6,926 nt of DNA, taken from IMG/VR virus record IMGVR_UViG_2648501390_000002, positions 1 to 6,926 of that record; one strand, written 5' to 3'. A model generated the notes under the pieces. It ran no database searches. It was not told the DNA's origin and saw nothing but the letters and a program-made list of their open reading frames with translations. A program made the position numbers and the translations under genes. Below, in pieces: positions 1 to 6,926 of this stretch; the stretch's first letter is position 1; each line of letters starts with the position of its first letter. The DNA comes from a virus. Its lineage: Duplodnaviria; Heunggongvirae; Uroviricota; Caudoviricetes.

Positions 1-129
1 GAGCAAGTAATAGAAATAAAGAAATCAAAGGGAGTTAATCAAAGAGAGCTTGCTAAAAAATACTGTGTCAGTCAGACGGTGATTCACAATATCCAGTCTG
101 GTAAATCGTGGAGGCATGTTAATGGCTGA
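1..129 (+). CDS. 3' end of an upstream gene (5' end outside window); the last 42 aa contain a helix-turn-helix-like segment
   Basis: Frame 1 is open from base 1 to TGA at 127-129 and translates [42 protein letters not shown]. The segment [21 protein letters not shown] has the spacing of a classic HTH (Gly turn, hydrophobic recognition helix). Its stop overlaps the start of the next gene (ATG 122), implying translational coupling. Only 42 aa are visible, so the fold assignment is tentative. Confidence 0.45.
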
Positions 130-1075
130 TTCGAATCTCAATGAGCCAGTAATCATTCAGGCTACGCGGCTCGATACATCAATCCTTCCACGCAATATCT
201 TCTCGCAGTCGTATCTGCTTTACGTTATCGCACAGGGTACTGATGTTGGTAACGTGGCTAACAAAGCCAACGAGGCCGGACAGGGCGCTTATGATGCACA
301 GGTCAGGAACGATGAGCAGGATGTCACCCTTGCAGACCATGAATCCAGAATTGAAGCAGCTGAAGCAACTCTCATCAATCATGAGCATAGAATTGCAGCA
401 GCGGAAAGCACTCTTGCAGATCATGAAACAAGGATTACGGCTGCTGAAACAGAGCTGGCTGATCACGAGACGAGAATTGCTGCCAATGAATCTGAGTTAG
501 CAAACCATGATGCGCGCATAACTCAGAATACAACCGATATCGACGCACTTGATACCAGGCTCACAGCGGCAGAGGGAAGTATTTCGACGCTACAAAGCAC
601 AGTTGGTGATCACTCAACAAGAATATCTGCGCTTGAGTATGCCACCACGCGCAAGAAATCAGAGGTTGTTTACTCAGGGGTATCTGTAACCATCCCGACA
701 GCGCCGACTAACCTTGTTAGCCTGCTGAAAACGCTCACGCCGTCATCCGGAACGTTGGCACCATTCTTCGACACCGTTAACAACAAGATGGTTGTGTTCA
801 ACGAGAACAAAACCCTGTTCTTCAAGCTGTCGATTGTCGGGACGTGGCCCAGTGGAACCGCCAACAGGTCAATGCAGCTAACCTTTTCCGGCTCTGTTCC
901 TGACACACTGGTAAGCAGTCGCAACTCGGCGACAACGACCGATAACATCCTGTTAGCTACGTTCTTCAGCGTGGATAAAGACGGCTTTCTTGCCACAAAT
1001 GGCAGCACGTTAACCATTCAGTCGAATGGTGCGTCGTTTACTGCCACAACCATCAAGATAATCGCGGAGCAGTAA
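122..1075 (+). CDS. Tail needle / cell-envelope-penetrating fiber (P22 gp26-like) with an extra C-terminal knob-like domain
   Basis: ORF-track ORF 116-1075. I prefer ATG 122 because GGAGG at 110-114 sits 7 nt upstream of it but only 1 nt upstream of ATG 116. The N-terminus [43 protein letters not shown] closely matches my recollection of the P22 gp26 N-terminus (from memory, not searched). The centre is five 14-aa coiled-coil repeats (ADHExRIxAAExxL). The protein is 317 aa versus about 233 aa for P22 gp26, and the extra about 150 C-terminal residues are beta-rich (S/T/N/G), as in knob-bearing needles of Sf6-type phages. Confidence 0.85.
332..541 (+). repeat. Five imperfect 42-bp tandem repeats inside the needle gene, encoding 14-residue coiled-coil units
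   Basis: Units at 332-373, 374-415, 416-457, 458-499 and a degenerate one at 500-541 encode [14 protein letters not shown] / [14 protein letters not shown] / [14 protein letters not shown] / [14 protein letters not shown] / [14 protein letters not shown]. Read directly from the sequence. Confidence 0.8.
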
Positions 1076-1530
1076 TGATTCAGTTCAAACCAACGCGAAA
1101 CATCGACCTGATAGAAGCCGTGGGAAATCACCCCGACATTATCACCGGGAGCAACAACGGTGATGGATACGACTACAAGCCTGAATGCCGTTACTTCGAG
1201 GTGAACGTGCACGGTCAGTTTGGCGGCATTGTTTACTATCAGGAGATTCAGCCGCTGACATTCGATTGCCACGCCATGTACCTGCCAGAGGTTCGTGGAT
1301 TCAGCAAGGAAATCGGGCTGGCGTTCTGGCGATACATTCTGACTAACACCACTGTTCAGTGTGTCACATCGTTCGCTGCACGCAAATTCCGCCACGGGCA
1401 GATGTACTGCGCAATGATTGGCCTTAAGCGTGTCGGAACCATCAAGAAATACTTTAAAGGCGTGGATGACGTGACTTTTTACAGCGCCACACGCGAAGAA
1501 CTAATCGACTTCCTGAATCACGGGAGATAG
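1075..1530 (+). CDS. Gene 14-like protein (position and size match P22 gene 14, associated with ejection-protein function/assembly)
   Basis: 151-aa ORF. Its ATG at 1075-1077 shares a base with the TAA stop of the needle gene (TAATG), and GGAG lies 5 nt upstream. The assignment rests on synteny (needle-14-7-20-16 order) and size; I do not recognise the sequence itself. Confidence 0.6.
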   Translation: MIQFKPTRNIDLIEAVGNHPDIITGSNNGDGYDYKPECRYFEVNVHGQFGGIVYYQEIQPLTFDCHAMYLPEVRGFSKEIGLAFWRYILTNTTVQCVTSFAARKFRHGQMYCAMIGLKRVGTIKKYFKGVDDVTFYSATREELIDFLNHGR

Positions 1531-1532
1531 CC

Positions 1533-2228
1533 ATGTTATATGCATTTAAGCTGGGCAGAAAACTGCGCGGCGAGGAACCTTATTGCCCTGAAAAAGGCGG
1601 GAAAGGTGGCTCCGATAAAAGTGCAAAGTATGCCGCAGAAGCTCAGAAGTATGCCGCAGACCTGCAAAATCAGCAGTTCAACACCATCATGAATAACCTG
1701 AAGCCGTTTACTCCTCTGGCTGAGAAGTATGTCGGTAGCCTCGAGAACTTATCGTCTCTGGAGGGGCAAGGTCAGGCACTTAACCAGTATTACAACTCTC
1801 AGCAGTATAAAGACCTTGCAGGTCAGGCTCGCTATCAGAGTCTGGCGGCAGCGGAAGCAACAGGTGGATTGGGTTCCACCTCAACCAGTAATCAGTTAGC
1901 AACAATCGCACCAACGCTTGGTCAGCAATGGCTATCTGGACAAATGAACAACTACCAGAATCTGGCAAATATTGGTCTTGGCGCGCTTCAGGGACAGGCA
2001 AACGCCGGGCAGACATATGCCAACAACATGAGCCAGATTTCACAGCAAAGCGCAGCACTGGCGGCGGCAAACGCTAACAGACCTTCCGGCCTTCAATCTG
2101 CAATAGGCGGGGCTGCCTCTGGAGCAATTGCTGGAGCACAGCTTGGCAGCATTGTTCCCGGTATTGGTACTGGTATTGGTGCCGCTGTTGGCGGCGGTCT
2201 TGGTCTTCTTGGTTCACTACTTTATTAA
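1533..2228 (+). CDS. Ejection (E) protein, P22 gp7-like
   Basis: 231 aa (P22 gp7 is about 229 aa, from memory). It starts 2 nt after the gene 14 stop. It has a basic N-terminal segment (MLYAFKLGRKLRGEEP...), a Gln/Ala/Asn-rich middle, and a Gly/Ala/Ile-rich hydrophobic C-terminus (GGAASGAIAGAQLGSIVPGIGTGIGAAVGGGLGLLGSLLY) suited to membrane insertion. Confidence 0.7.
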   Translation: MLYAFKLGRKLRGEEPYCPEKGGKGGSDKSAKYAAEAQKYAADLQNQQFNTIMNNLKPFTPLAEKYVGSLENLSSLEGQGQALNQYYNSQQYKDLAGQARYQSLAAAEATGGLGSTSTSNQLATIAPTLGQQWLSGQMNNYQNLANIGLGALQGQANAGQTYANNMSQISQQSAALAAANANRPSGLQSAIGGAASGAIAGAQLGSIVPGIGTGIGAAVGGGLGLLGSLLY

Positions 2229-2238
2229 GGGGTAATCA

Positions 2239-3582
2239 ATGGCTACGTGGCAACAGGGTATTAATTCTGGTGGTTTTCTGGCTGGCATCGGTGCGCAAAA
2301 TGAGAATGCGCCAAAGGCAAGCGACATTAACGCAACGCTTGGTCTGATCCGCGAAAACAATGAACTGGCTCGCTCAGGTGCAAATAACGTTGGTCTGACC
2401 GCGTTACGTGGTCTGGCTGGAGTTGCTGATATTTATAAGCAGCAGCAACAGCAGGAACGTAAAGCGGCATTCCAGAAAGGTTATGCAGATGCTTATGCGT
2501 CCGGCGACAGGGAGCAGATGCGTAATCTTATTACAGCATTCCCTGAAGAGTTTGAGGAAGTCCGTAAAGGCATGGGGTATGTCGATGATGCCCAGCGGGA
2601 TGATTTTGGCAATCTGGCGCTCAAGGCTCAGGTAGCTTCGTCGCTTGGTCCGGGCGCATTTGGCAGGTTCATGATGGATAACGAAAAGGAGATGCGTCGT
2701 TTAGGTATCCCTCCAGAAACTATTGCGGAAATGCAGGTTAATGACCCGCAGGGCTTCCAGCACTTCACAGGTAATCTGGCACTATTTTCTCTCGGTCATG
2801 AGAAGTATTTCGATATCAAAGATCGAATGGAGGGGCGTCGACTTGAGCAAGGGCGATTGGATGAAAGCATCCGTCAGGCTGACATGGAGAATGCGAGAGG
2901 ATGGGCAAATATCCAAAATGCTCAACTAGACAGGGCTCAGCGGGCACAAATGCACTCAGATGAGATGGGATTGAAGCTAATGGAGCTGGGGCAAAAAGGT
3001 AAGCCGTCAGCAGACTTAATTAAGGGATTAAATTCTGACATTACCAATTTTGGCAAAAATTATAACTCTGTCAGAGCGGCGGCAAACTCTCTGCAAGCCC
3101 TTAGCAAGGTAAATACTGGCGCTGCCCAACTTGGGATTATCTTTAATTACATGAAGTCTCTCGACCCTCAGTCAGTTGTTCGCGAAGGTGAACAGGTTCA
3201 GGTCATGCGCTCTGATGGCATATGGGGGCAGATAAAAGGATATGTAGACCAGCTTAATGCAGGGAATGGCTTGTCACAGGAAGCGAGGGATAACATTGTC
3301 AACGCAGCAAAAATTAACGCCAACGCTATGGGGCAGCAGTTTAACCAGCAGGTAGACGAATATCTGGATACGTATGGAGATACTATTCCTCAGGGGCTGA
3401 AAAAAAGTTTAGGGAGAAGGAAGGCCAAGCTATTTGACGATGTCCCAGCGCAGCCTACACCACAAGGTGGTAATGGGCAGACAAAAGCTGCGCCAAGTGG
3501 GATATCAGAAGGCGCGACGGCAACGAACCCTAAAACTGGTCAGAAACTCATTTATAGGAACGGACAATGGCAACCGATGTAG
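2239..3582 (+). CDS. Ejection (E) protein, P22 gp20-like
   Basis: 447 aa (P22 gp20 is about 471 aa, from memory). AAGGGG lies upstream of ATG 2239. It is third in the conserved 7-20-16 order, Gln-rich and predicted largely helical, and overlaps the next gene by 16 nt. Confidence 0.7.
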   Translation: MATWQQGINSGGFLAGIGAQNENAPKASDINATLGLIRENNELARSGANNVGLTALRGLAGVADIYKQQQQQERKAAFQKGYADAYASGDREQMRNLITAFPEEFEEVRKGMGYVDDAQRDDFGNLALKAQVASSLGPGAFGRFMMDNEKEMRRLGIPPETIAEMQVNDPQGFQHFTGNLALFSLGHEKYFDIKDRMEGRRLEQGRLDESIRQADMENARGWANIQNAQLDRAQRAQMHSDEMGLKLMELGQKGKPSADLIKGLNSDITNFGKNYNSVRAAANSLQALSKVNTGAAQLGIIFNYMKSLDPQSVVREGEQVQVMRSDGIWGQIKGYVDQLNAGNGLSQEARDNIVNAAKINANAMGQQFNQQVDEYLDTYGDTIPQGLKKSLGRRKAKLFDDVPAQPTPQGGNGQTKAAPSGISEGATATNPKTGQKLIYRNGQWQPM

Positions 3583-5690
3583 GTTTACCCGAAGGCTTTG
3601 TTCTCGATAATCAGCCTGATAACTCACAGCTTCCTGATGGCTTTGTGCTTGATTCCCAACCAGAACAGCAGCAATCTCCTTTGGTTTCACCAGAGGAAAA
3701 TTCCAGACAGGAAAATGTTGTTAATAATGCTAACGGTTTCGACCGTTTTATGTATGGCGTTCTCAGTGGATTGATGGATGTTGGTAAAGGTGTTGGCCTG
3801 TTTCAGGACATGACACCAGAAGAGCAAGCCGCAATTCAGTCTCTACAGCAGAAGTTAGCGGCAAAACCATCAACCGCACAAGATGTTGGTGAGTTCGTTG
3901 GACAAGCAGCACCATTTGTTAGTGGTGGTGGGATTATTTCTCAGGTTCCGAAAGGGGCGGCAAGGCTGGCTGCCGCCGCAGGGCTTGGTGCTGGAGAAGG
4001 GGCTATTGTAGCCAATGGAACAAATAGCGATGTTGCTTCCGGCGCTGCTATTGGCGCTGTGGCTGGCCCTGTAGCCGAGATTGTTGGTCCAGCGCTTGGG
4101 AAGATTGCAGGAAAAATTAAAAATAGTGCCGGAGATATTTATCGCTCATCCGTAGGGATGGGTAGTAAATCATCTAAAGCAACGTTAAAGAAAGCTGCTG
4201 GCGCAATGGATAATAAATTTATTGGTGGGCAACGAGCTATTCAAGATTTCGCCGATGAAGTTAATCCTGATTTTAACGCGATAAATGCTATTCGTGAGCT
4301 AGAACTGGAAAATTATGCCACTCCAGGCATGATCTCTAATAATCCTGCTGTCAGGGCTCTTGATAATGCAGTGGCAAGTCTCCCTGGAACAGAGATTAGT
4401 GAGGCGCATAAGCGTTTTATTACTGAATTAGGAAGAAAAGCTGATGAAATGATAACTTCATTTGGGGGAAACCTTGATAAGCAACTGGTTTCTGACAGGC
4501 TTGCAGATAATTTTGATAAAACCATTTCATCATTACAAAATCAGTCAGATAACATCTACAACAAAATTGCCGAAAAGGTACCTGTAAGAGACCGGATTGA
4601 GGCAACTAATACATTGAATTTTTTAGAGGATTTTGCTGATGACATAGGTGGAATTGATGAATTATCTCCAATAATGAAGCGGACATTGAACCGACTTGAT
4701 CCAAACACCTTGCCAACGTATGGGCGTTTAGATCTCGCTAGAAAGCAGGTTGGACAAGCTATTGGCAAAGGCTCTGGCCCATTCAAGGATGAAGAAACAG
4801 GTGTTCTTAAAAAGTTATATGCAGCCATAACAGATGACCAACAGGCTGTCGCAGAAAAATATGGCGCAGGGGAATTATGGACGCTTGGTAAGGAGTTGGT
4901 AAAAAAACGAAAATCCATTGAAGATGATGCTGTAACCGTCTTGGGTAGAAAACTTCAGCAATCAGCAATTCCAAAAGTTGAAAGTGCCGTTGTTAATATG
5001 GCAAAAGGAAACGGTGGTGACTTTAGGCAATTAATGAAGTCAATTCCAAAGGATATGCGGCAGGAAGTTGCGCTCACCTCAATGAATAAAGCATTTACCA
5101 GCTATGCCAAATCACCTGGTCAGCAATTAGGAGTTGATGGATTTGTAAAATGGTATAACGGAATGTCACGCAATGGGGCCAATATGAAGGCTCTCCGTGA
5201 TGCTATTGGCACAGATGCATCAAAGCGCCTTGATACGATTTATCAAGCAGCTAAGGCTATGAATAGACTCAATACTGGTAAGCAGTATGCTAGTAGCCTT
5301 GTGGATCAGCAAGTTAATAACTTTCTGAAAGAAAAGGGTAGTCTCGCAAAAATTTATGGAATAGCCTCAAAAGCTGCTGCGGCGGAAGGTATTACAAGCT
5401 TATCTGGTCTTCCTGGTGTAGGTGCAACAGGGGTGATAACGTCAGCATTGATGTCAGGGAAAACAAGCAGGATAAAGGCTGCTGATGCCCTACTGTCTTC
5501 TCCTGAGTTTAAATCAATGCTATTTCGCCTGCAAAACGCACCAGTAGACAGAGCAGAAGTGAGACGCGTAATAGAAAGGAAACTGATGCAATCTGGGGCA
5601 TTTAAGAGATGGGAGAAAACCTTATCAACAGATGAAGCAAAAACCATTGCCCGCACGGGGATTATTACATGGCTCGCTAGTGACAGTTAG
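3567..5690 (+). CDS. Ejection (E) protein, P22 gp16-like, with an N-terminal tandem peptide repeat and a compositionally distinct distal part
   Basis: 707 aa (P22 gp16 is about 609 aa, from memory). AGGAA lies 7 nt upstream of ATG 3567, and the start overlaps the gp20-like stop. It is the last gene of the co-directional block and has a Gly/Ala-rich segment (aa about 110-180). Confidence 0.7.
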   Translation: MATDVGLPEGFVLDNQPDNSQLPDGFVLDSQPEQQQSPLVSPEENSRQENVVNNANGFDRFMYGVLSGLMDVGKGVGLFQDMTPEEQAAIQSLQQKLAAKPSTAQDVGEFVGQAAPFVSGGGIISQVPKGAARLAAAAGLGAGEGAIVANGTNSDVASGAAIGAVAGPVAEIVGPALGKIAGKIKNSAGDIYRSSVGMGSKSSKATLKKAAGAMDNKFIGGQRAIQDFADEVNPDFNAINAIRELELENYATPGMISNNPAVRALDNAVASLPGTEISEAHKRFITELGRKADEMITSFGGNLDKQLVSDRLADNFDKTISSLQNQSDNIYNKIAEKVPVRDRIEATNTLNFLEDFADDIGGIDELSPIMKRTLNRLDPNTLPTYGRLDLARKQVGQAIGKGSGPFKDEETGVLKKLYAAITDDQQAVAEKYGAGELWTLGKELVKKRKSIEDDAVTVLGRKLQQSAIPKVESAVVNMAKGNGGDFRQLMKSIPKDMRQEVALTSMNKAFTSYAKSPGQQLGVDGFVKWYNGMSRNGANMKALRDAIGTDASKRLDTIYQAAKAMNRLNTGKQYASSLVDQQVNNFLKEKGSLAKIYGIASKAAAAEGITSLSGLPGVGATGVITSALMSGKTSRIKAADALLSSPEFKSMLFRLQNAPVDRAEVRRVIERKLMQSGAFKRWEKTLSTDEAKTIARTGIITWLASDS
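3585..3674 (+). repeat. Two 45-bp tandem repeats encoding LPEGFVLDNQPDNSQ / LPDGFVLDSQPEQQQ at the N-terminus of the gp16-like protein
   Basis: Direct read: 3585-3629 and 3630-3674 encode near-identical 15-aa units with the core LP[ED]GFVLD[NS]QP. Confidence 0.75.
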
Positions 5691-5914
5691 TCAACTTTGG
5701 TTATTTTGCCTTCTTTTTCTTGATGAACTTTGCATCCATCATCTTTTGATAGCCAAACTAAAAACTTTAAAACCTTAAACACAAGTAAGGCTACTGCAAT
5801 GAAAGCACCAATCGCAATTATTGCTAGCGAAATTATTTGCATTGGTGCTTTTAATGCAGGGAAAATAGTGTAAATGATCGCGAAAACAGTAATTATGAGG
5901 AACCATCGCTTCAC
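5687..5914 (-). CDS. Small inner-membrane protein (75 aa, two predicted TM helices, charged C-terminal tail); candidate superinfection-exclusion or membrane-acting accessory protein
   Basis: The ORF track gives 5687-5989 (100 aa from ATG 5989), but that ATG has no Shine-Dalgarno sequence. An in-frame GTG at 5914-5912 is preceded by a perfect AAGGAGG (complement of 5920-5926) with a 5-nt spacer. The product is VKRWFLIITVFAIIYTIFPALKAPMQIISLAIIAIGAFIAVALLVFKVLKFLVWLSKDDGCKVHQEKEGKITKVD: two hydrophobic stretches of about 18-23 aa, then a Lys/Asp/Glu-rich tail. Its stop (complement of 5687-5689) overlaps the gene 16 stop (5688-5690). Confidence 0.55.
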   Translation of the reverse strand: MKRWFLIITVFAIIYTIFPALKAPMQIISLAIIAIGAFIAVALLVFKVLKFLVWLSKDDGCKVHQEKEGKITKVD

Positions 5915-5978
5915 ACCAACCTCCTTAGTTTTGTGCAGGATACCAGATGATAATGTGTAGTTGGAGTAGCGCGGTTGT

Positions 5979-6070
5979 AATGCAAGCATTTTGTTTTGGT
6001 TTTATGCTTGCTTGTATGTGTGTACAGTGCATATAATGCAAGCATACATCACAATAAAGGTGCTTGCATT
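5979..6070. promoter_or_regulatory. Divergent control region with four copies of a near-palindromic operator-like motif (consensus AATGCWWGCATT)
   Basis: O1 at 5979-5990 is AATGCAAGCATT (perfect 5-bp inverted arms around AA). O2 at 6003-6014 is TATGCTTGCTTG (core ATGCTTGC). O3 at 6035-6046 is AATGCAAGCATA. O4 at 6059-6070 is GGTGCTTGCATT and abuts ATG 6071. Centre-to-centre spacings are about 23, 33 and 24 bp, with alternating AA/TT centres. Confidence 0.5.
6008..6037 (+). promoter_or_regulatory. Putative sigma70-type promoter for the rightward gene (-35 TTGCTT, 18-bp spacer, -10 TATAAT)
   Basis: TTGCTT at 6008-6013 and a consensus TATAAT at 6032-6037. O2 overlaps the -35 and O3 overlaps the -10/+1 region. 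AAAGG at 6055-6059 is a plausible RBS for ATG 6071. Not experimentally supported. Confidence 0.4.
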
Positions 6071-6926
6071 ATGACTGAAAAGAAAAGTGGCGAAGGGAAA
6101 GCTAAGGGCGGTATCGCTCGCGCAAAGTCGCTGACTAAAGAGCAGCGTTCTGAAATAGCAAAGAAAGCAGCGGCTGCAAGATGGAAGGATAAACCATTAA
6201 TTGCTACGCATAAGGGATCGTTCCAGCATGAATTCGGGATTGATGTTGAGTGCTATGTGTTAAATGATGATAACAAAACTGCCGTTATTAGCCAGAGAGG
6301 CATGGGAGAAGCGATTGGTCTTGGCGAAGGTGGCAGCAGGTTGCCAAAGTTTATTCAGGGGAAAACTATTTCTCAGTATATCGGGCATGAATTAAGGGCA
6401 AAACTTGAAAATCCTCTTATTTTTCAATACAAACAGGCGGGCACGAACACTCCAGCTAATCCTGTAATACATGGCTACGATGTAACAATATTAATTGATT
6501 TATGTCGAGCAATCTCTAATGCTAAAGCTGAAGGTAAGTTGCTTTCCAGTCAGGAAGGGATTGCTAAGCAAGCCAGAATCATTATTGATGCATCAGCCAA
6601 GGCGGGCATTCAGGGGCTTGTTTATGCTTTGGCAGGGTATGACAGAACAAAAGAAGAGGTAATTCAAGCATATAAGCGATATGTTGCTGAAGAGGCTCGT
6701 GAGTATGAAAGAGAGTTCACCCCTGAACTTTATGAGCATTGGTATCGTCTGTATGGTATAGACAAACCAGTTAGAGGGCGACCATGGGCGTTTAAATATC
6801 TTACGATAGATCACATTTATTACCCATTAGCCAGAAGTGAAGGAAAGGTATTTAATTTAGCAAAAACGTCAAAAGAAGAAAAAGGCAGCAAAAACGATAA
6901 AATACACCAGTTTTTATCAGAGGTTG
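6071..6926 (+). CDS. 5' part of a gene for a phage regulatory-type protein (P63C-domain / antirepressor-like family; 3' end outside window)
   Basis: Frame 2 is open from ATG 6071 to the window end (285 codons). It is missing from the ORF track, presumably because it has no stop in the window. The N-terminus MTEKKSGEGKAKGGIARAKSLTKEQRSEIAKKAAAARWKDK carries the basic motif GGxARAxxLTxEQRxEIAxKAAxARW, which I associate from memory with P63C-domain proteins that accompany Bro-N/KilA-N/Ant-type antirepressor domains. It is preceded by the operator/promoter region. Confidence 0.7.
   Translation, partial: MTEKKSGEGKAKGGIARAKSLTKEQRSEIAKKAAAARWKDKPLIATHKGSFQHEFGIDVECYVLNDDNKTAVISQRGMGEAIGLGEGGSRLPKFIQGKTISQYIGHELRAKLENPLIFQYKQAGTNTPANPVIHGYDVTILIDLCRAISNAKAEGKLLSSQEGIAKQARIIIDASAKAGIQGLVYALAGYDRTKEEVIQAYKRYVAEEAREYEREFTPELYEHWYRLYGIDKPVRGRPWAFKYLTIDHIYYPLARSEGKVFNLAKTSKEEKGSKNDKIHQFLSEV

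Follow-up and report, generated by a model that had tools for sequence, protein, structure and literature searches.

Genes at the 5′ End of the Window

The window, i.e., the whole 6,926-nt stretch of phage DNA analyzed here (Caudoviricetes; IMG/VR record IMGVR_UViG_2648501390_000002, positions 1–6,926), opens inside one gene and runs directly into a second. The features of this region are the following:

1–129, + strand: very probably the 3′ end of a free-standing NUMOD4/HNH homing endonuclease gene, residues 140–181 of 181 plus TGA (translation; 129/129 nt identity to L001 7001–7129)
110–114, + strand: GGAGG, Shine-Dalgarno-like motif, putatively for the needle gene (read directly from the sequence)
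120–129, + strand: right-hand boundary of the insertion (TAATGGCTGA); alignments with all phages and genomes that lack the endonuclease begin at query position 120
122–1075, + strand: tail needle gene of the P22 gp26/Sf6 gp9 type with a C-terminal knob (ORF; RefSeq ‘tail needle knob protein’)

Frame 1 is open from the first base of the window and is translated for 42 codons up to a TGA stop at 127–129. As the first-pass annotation had noted, this stop overlaps the start of the needle gene: the needle frame, which begins with the ATG at position 122 (MADSNL...), and the endonuclease frame share 8 nt (ATGGCTGA). The mechanical ORF list gives an alternative needle start at ATG 116. The start was taken as ATG 122 because homology to loci without the upstream gene begins at position 120 and the RefSeq start is the equivalent of 122. 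Trp-Arg codons close to the endonuclease stop form the GGAGG motif at 110–114, 7 nt before ATG 122; from its sequence, this motif may well be the ribosome binding site of the needle gene. In a related HEG-bearing contig (L007), the needle gene carries PF16532 (Phage_tail_NK).

The junctions were compared in four loci (L001, L002, L003, and L004), and the same arrangement was found in Providencia and metagenomic relatives. The last two endonuclease codons and the stop (AAT GGC TGA) are sequence common to endonuclease-less loci, mostly the first 8 nt of the needle gene. The endonuclease gene has no stop codon outside this common sequence and extends 8 nt into the needle gene. Moreover, TGGAGGCATGTTAATGGCTGA is common to two endonuclease families, A (the window type) and B, although the HTH coding sequences upstream of it differ.

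The window covers residues 140–181 of the endonuclease only. The first 139 codons lie upstream of it, and the remainder of the protein, as well as the completeness of the window’s copy, is deduced from loci that are identical to it at 129 of 129 nt over positions 1–129.

Identity and Domain Architecture of the Endonuclease

In E. coli STEC346 (L001), the sequence identical to window 1–129 lies at 7001–7129 and forms the end of a 546-nt gene (6584–7129; 40% GC). Its product, WP_021514124.1, is a protein of 181 aa designated ‘NUMOD4 domain-containing protein’ in RefSeq. This full-length relative consists, in order, of an N-terminal NUMOD4 β-strand module, an HNH_3 domain (beta-beta-alpha-metal), a linker, and a three-helix HTH. 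In the part outside the window, Pfam detected the NUMOD4 module at residues 7–60 (E = 2.4e-11, 44.1 bits against a 23.4-bit cut-off) and the HNH nuclease domain (HNH_3, E = 1.7e-10, 40.8 bits against a 24.8-bit cut-off). The HTH scored below threshold: HTH_3 matched the 42-aa fragment with an E-value of 3e-4 and 21.2 bits, just under the 23-bit cut-off, and residues 144–174 of the full-length protein with an E-value of 0.0048 and 17.3 bits. The fragment alone matched PHROG 59 (‘HNH endonuclease’) with an E-value of 1.8e-7, and the full-length protein matched the same family over residues 1–180 with an E-value of 3.3e-58. Homologues in the protein database number more than 3,000 at E ≤ 1e-10.

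By sequence, the top PDB match is I-HmuI (1U3E, E = 2.3e-12). An alignment of 72 homologues showed that His91, Asn112, and His115 of the HNH motif are invariant, and His91 and Asn112 align with the His and Asn of the I-HmuI HNH motif. The Asp that precedes the catalytic His in I-HmuI is replaced by Asn, which is also invariant in the 72 homologues and is therefore probably normal for the family. Of the 16 E. coli copies, 15 retain the whole 181-aa frame together with the catalytic His and Asn; at 99–100% identity, the copies are too alike for selection on the reading frame to be measured from them.

The AlphaFold2 model built on the 72-homologue alignment has a mean pLDDT of 91.8, with β-strands in the NUMOD4 and HNH parts. 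Three helices (residues 139–147, 153–160, and 164–171; pLDDT about 88–96) form the HTH, the portion seen in the window. The HTH-like character that had been read from the 42 visible residues is thus upheld by the model, next to the sub-threshold HTH_3 score. A Foldseek search against the PDB ranked I-HmuI (1u3e_M) first, with an E-value of 6.6e-9, a probability of 1.00, 182 aligned columns, and TM values of 0.53–0.55. It was the only match with an E-value below 0.001; I-PpoI followed weakly, and the small HTH proteins SinR, HipB, and C.Esp1396I matched the C-terminal part only.

By sequence and predicted structure, the protein shows every feature of I-HmuI-like HNH homing endonucleases that was tested for. 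Window 1–129 is therefore very likely to encode the C-terminal HTH DNA-binding domain of a free-standing HNH homing endonuclease, which is presumed to cleave at a specific target.

Insertion Site between gp10 and the Needle Gene

In L001, gp10 (‘packaged DNA stabilization protein’, 472 aa, 5144–6562) is intact and ends 21 nt before the endonuclease ATG; the 21-nt spacer carries AAGGAG 7 nt before that ATG. An intact gp10 likewise lies upstream in L003, L010–L012, L014–L015, and L017–L030. Thus, the hub gene, which the first-pass annotation had expected directly before the needle gene, is not missing: a complete, separate gp10 lies upstream of the endonuclease in the relatives. In the endonuclease-less loci (L002 and L004), as in most related prophages, the gp10 TAA directly overlaps the needle ATG as TAATG, which confirms that the gene order next to the window’s needle gene is atypical. 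The TAATG of genomes without the gene and the intact gp10 upstream in carriers indicate that the endonuclease gene is an insertion placed exactly at the gp10–needle junction. The host locus is the late operon of a P22-like prophage with an Sf6-type needle.

Searches around the gene for other elements were negative. Against an intron-encoded endonuclease, no intron was detected in L001 6200–7400 by Rfam, whose single match under a permissive threshold was snoRNA-like and attributable to chance (E = 0.26); in the window, neither Rfam nor the tRNA scan returned a match. The RNA at the endonuclease start folds no better than shuffled sequence (z = −0.09), giving no sign of a hairpin sequestering the ribosome binding site, and counts of candidate promoters and terminators of the endonuclease gene’s own were at or below the shuffled expectation.

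Distribution among Genomes

A megablast search of window positions 1–400 against 5,426 complete E. coli genomes matched the 5′ end of the needle gene in 776 genomes. The first 120 nt were also matched in 16 of these 776 (match over at least 80% of the query), and all 16 have a ‘NUMOD4 domain-containing protein’ annotated at the matching position. Altogether, an endonuclease gene is present at the gp10–needle junction in about 50 of the 776 genomes, including the 16 with the window type; only about 6–7% of related prophages have an endonuclease at this site. The best overall matches to the window, 97% over 120–6926, are without the endonuclease gene.

Outside these genomes, the isolated phage HZ41 carries the gene with 100% amino-acid identity, and a Providencia rettgeri genome and metagenome-assembled P22-like contigs have orthologues with 61–85% identity at the gp10–needle junction. 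These orthologues overlap the needle gene by 8 nt, or by 14 nt in L009. When species-representative genome contigs were scanned with the protein, the sole match was an unrelated Vibrio contig of 515 nt (41% identity), which gave no taxonomic range. In E. coli M160133 (H68; NZ_CP022164.1, 1923410–1924744), a window-type endonuclease gene is broken by IS1A and the prophage is otherwise retained. As a separate observation, the IMG/VR contig L028 has a gap of ~800 nt (1691–2501) where M160133 has IS1A.

Uniformity of the Element and the Linked gp10 Tail

The 129 nt of the window are identical in 16 of 18 family-A loci, and the adjoining needle sequence is 71% to 95.5% identical. Mean pairwise identities among the 18 loci, calculated without gaps so that indels in the needle region may depress the figures somewhat, are 92.1% for the gp10 body (first 1080 nt), 96.0% for the last 300 nt of gp10, 98.0% for the spacer and endonuclease gene, and 81.0% for needle nt 9–208. 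Moreover, the same endonuclease adjoins different gp4 alleles and needle genes of three lengths (702, 849, and 954 bp).

The gp10 genes of carriers and non-carriers differ chiefly at their 3′ ends. Nucleotide identity between the two is about 94% over the first 1080 nt and 58–59% over the last 300 nt, and protein identity is 99.7% over the first 360 aa and 64% over the last 100 aa. In carriers, the GC content is 51% over the first 1080 nt and 34% over the last 300 nt, whereas the corresponding values in non-carriers are about 52% and 49%. Five loci have the switch point near nt 1110–1140 of gp10, and L003 and L011 have it near nt 1081. A low-GC gp10 tail (37–42%) also lies beside the orthologues, in lineages with a gp10 body of 53–57% GC. 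That of Providencia (L005) is just 63% identical to the low-GC tail of the carriers, too distant to mark it as the donor.

A query made of the diverged gp10 tail and the first 117 nt of the endonuclease gene was run against the 5,426 E. coli genomes. At detectable similarity, the diverged tail was never found in these genomes without the start of the endonuclease behind it; the ranking drops from 79% to 30% coverage, and the matches at 30% are the endonuclease 5′ end only.

Uniformity in comparison with the flanks, together with a linked diverged flank, is the signature of free-standing (“intronless”) homing, as far as it can be read from sequence. The gp10 tail of carriers is presumed to be an uncleavable, self-immune allele. 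Its perfect linkage could also reflect simple hitch-hiking from a low-GC donor phage instead of a determinant of immunity. A further reading, which we regard as unlikely, is that the mobile unit is a cassette of the endonuclease gene and a recoded C-terminal segment of ~100 gp10 residues that is 64% identical to the resident allele. If this were true, P22-like lineages of different genera (E. coli, Providencia, and others) would repeatedly exchange a structural part of gp10 close to its C-terminus through homing, and this could alter hub/needle compatibility or make competing phages assembly-incompatible. With a second endonuclease at the gp4–gp10 junction, as described below, gp10 would then be a bracketed, endonuclease-driven exchange module in temperate podoviruses.

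Related Endonuclease Families

Family B (177 aa) is about 50% identical to family A and occupies the same gp10–needle junction in about 35 E. coli genomes. The two families share the first 30 and last 6 residues, the upstream spacer, and the final TGGAGGCATGTTAATGGCTGA, but their HTH sequences differ. Family C is 55% identical to the window type and lies at the gp4–gp10 junction (L003 1875–2600; L021; L032–L058, IMG/VR). It is always preceded by a duplicate of the first 31 codons of gp10, which is annotated as a gp10 pseudogene in L003, and in the full gp10 of L003 the first ~120 nt are only 60–63% identical to other alleles. Families A and C have nearly identical first 47 residues and unrelated C-terminal HTHs. 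These mosaics (L001 6584–7129 compared with L003 2016–2600 and 3988–4521) suggest, at the sequence level, that DNA-binding domains have been shuffled among the families. In four loci (L003, L021, L035, and L051), endonuclease genes flank gp10 on both sides.

Alternative Explanations

Of the explanations offered in the first-pass annotation, that of a foreign gene inserted next to the needle gene stood as regards the insertion and fell as regards the identity of the gene, which had been given as a regulator or an invertase; the domains are NUMOD4, HNH_3, and HTH, and the closest structure is that of I-HmuI. Its other explanation, that the frame is the C-terminus of the tail hub gp10 with an acquired HTH-like tail, draws on position only, gp10 being directly upstream of the needle gene in most P22-like genomes. 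This can practically be dismissed: gp10 is separate, intact, and 472 aa long in all relatives examined, every locus with the exact 129-nt sequence has the gp10 TAA 21 nt before the ATG of the 181-aa gene, and neither the 181-aa protein nor the 42-aa fragment matches Phage_stabilise (PF11134). Indeed, the full-length protein does not align end to end with gp10, and it does contain an HTH. A DNA invertase of the Hin/Gin type, inverting all or part of the needle gene in the manner of the Mu or P1 tail-fibre switches, would account for a C-terminal HTH beside a tail gene, and the HTHs of serine recombinases are among the weak fold matches (2r0q and 1zr2, E about 0.5–1). However, Pfam detected no resolvase family in the full-length protein at E ≤ 1, the match over the whole length of the fold is I-HmuI, and the needle gene points the same way in all loci examined. 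Inverted repeats flanking it, which the first-pass annotation had proposed to look for, are likewise lacking in the window and in L001, where only pairs of 14–24 nt with 71–86% complementarity were found, internal or scattered and none bracketing the gene. The probability of an invertase is accordingly negligible.

A stand-alone XRE-type regulator or sigma region-4-like factor for late or needle expression is slightly less remote, although still highly improbable. HTH_3 is the best Pfam score of the fragment, and several PHROG families of transcriptional repressors or regulators matched the fragment with E-values of about 1e-3. Yet, HTH_3 falls under the Pfam cut-off, PHROG 59 scores better, sigma-70 region 4 gave no Pfam match at E ≤ 1, and no operator-like repeats or promoter occur nearby beyond chance; moreover, in all relatives this HTH forms the C-terminal 42 residues of a nuclease whose HNH motif is intact. 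The most serious rival, although itself improbable, is a decayed or domesticated endonuclease, an immobile relic kept by hitch-hiking or as the source of the needle’s ribosome binding site. In line with it, the last codons carry the GGAGG, one copy is disrupted by IS1 in a prophage that is otherwise retained, and few related prophages carry an endonuclease at the site. It is opposed by the intact frame and catalytic residues of nearly all E. coli copies, by the presence of the gene in the isolated phage HZ41, and by the greater uniformity of the gene than of its flanks across several needle and gp4 alleles, which argues for recent spread.

Proposed Mechanism

The following mechanism for the free-standing homing endonuclease is modeled on the I-HmuI family and on the free-standing endonucleases of T4. 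The endonuclease gene would be part of the late-operon transcript, with its own strong AAGGAG serving for translation. When a carrier and an endonuclease-less P22-like genome share one cell, the NUMOD4 module and the HTH would bind a long asymmetric site in the endonuclease-less allele, probably within the 3′-terminal ~300 nt of gp10 or spanning the TAATG junction, the one interrupted by the insertion. There, the HNH domain would nick or cut the endonuclease-less allele, and recombinational repair from the carrier would copy in the gene and the adjacent diverged gp10 tail, with sequence differences protecting the carrier allele. I-HmuI is a nicking enzyme, and nick-driven homing is less clear than homing by double-strand cutters. 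Since the endonuclease gene ends within the first codons of the needle gene and supplies the GGAGG, the insertion need not be polar on needle expression. Downstream expression of the needle gene is thus probably preserved, possibly by translational coupling, as the overlap would permit.

Comparison with Known Systems

I-HmuI from the Bacillus phage SPO1 is of similar size (174 aa, compared with 181 aa here) and has the same module order, including the linker helices, but the sequence identity is just about 27% and the HTH region is unaligned at the sequence level. I-HmuI is encoded in a group I intron of a DNA polymerase gene. The element described here, in contrast, stands by itself between two structural genes, and no intron was detected. 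Hin, Gin, and Cin serine invertases resemble it in having a C-terminal HTH and a tail-gene neighbor, but it has no serine-recombinase domain, no inverted recombination sites, and no sign of inversion.

Free-standing phage homing endonucleases such as SegF and MobE of T4 move by ‘intronless homing’ or marker exclusion (reviewed in PMC2988022; for mobE, PMC2790892). As with SegF and MobE, the gene has conserved essential genes on either side and occurs in some close relatives but not in others, and a linked diverged stretch of the neighboring gene is consistent with co-conversion and a cleavage-resistant carrier allele. The hosts differ, being T4-like virulent phages in those systems and a temperate P22-like podovirus prophage here, and the present element is known from sequence alone. 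SegF is a GIY-YIG enzyme, whereas this one is HNH.

In lactococcal Skunavirus phages, I-HmuI-like HNH endonucleases cluster by insertion site (PMC12724721). The present enzymes belong to the same I-HmuI-like fold family and also cluster by site, with families A and B sharing the gp10–needle junction and family C occupying the gp4–gp10 junction. Endonuclease genes are also known to adjoin and sometimes bracket essential phage genes, to form ‘HEG islands’, and to shuffle their DNA-binding domains (PMC10448857). Similarly, both sides of the essential gp10 are occupied in four loci, and domains are shuffled among the families. Unlike the Skunavirus cases, the present ones occur in another phage group and host phylum, and the 8-nt run-on and the low-GC recoded gp10 tail are peculiar to this site. 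The literature surveyed, whose incomplete coverage makes it weak evidence of novelty, describes no endonuclease at the gp10–gp26 junction of P22-like phages and reports endonucleases only at other sites, in epsilon34 and SEN22.

Part of this is already known, as RefSeq holds a domain label for the protein and PHROGs hold the family. The recoded gp10 tail and the bracketed gp10 are neat but unsurprising to a specialist. The apparent anomaly in a P22-like late operon is explained by a selfish element of an ordinary sort, phage parasites of this kind being common, and the HTH beside the needle gene should therefore not be annotated as a regulator. Among temperate enterobacterial podoviruses, the locus is a clear natural case of an HNH endonuclease that is free-standing and travels with a recoded piece of an essential structural gene, with two related endonuclease families at one junction and a third across gp10. 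This is useful for prophage annotation and for the study of homing endonucleases in mosaicism, although it opens no new question.

Other Features of the Window

Within the needle gene, the coiled coil (330–640, + strand) contains about 5–6 repeats of an 11-residue motif, LADHETRI(T/A)AAE. The C-terminus of the needle has been swapped independently of the endonuclease, as judged from the 702-, 849-, and 954-bp needle forms beside the same endonuclease.

Further downstream, the genes of the gp20-like (2239–3582) and gp16-like (3567–5690) ejection proteins overlap by 16 nt (3567–3582). The gp16-like protein has 707 aa, and the GC content drops to 39–43% over 4201–5400 within its gene, suggesting a mosaic origin. 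Directly after this gene, on the − strand, a 100-aa ORF with long hydrophobic stretches (5687–5989) lies where the GC content is locally about 37%; it resembles a moron or a superinfection-exclusion-type membrane protein. An ORF starting MTEKKSGEGKAKGG... (6071–6926, + strand) runs off the 3′ end of the window and for that reason is absent from the ORF list; it is the counterpart of a ‘P63C domain-containing protein’ in the best-matching prophage (L004 8488–9480).
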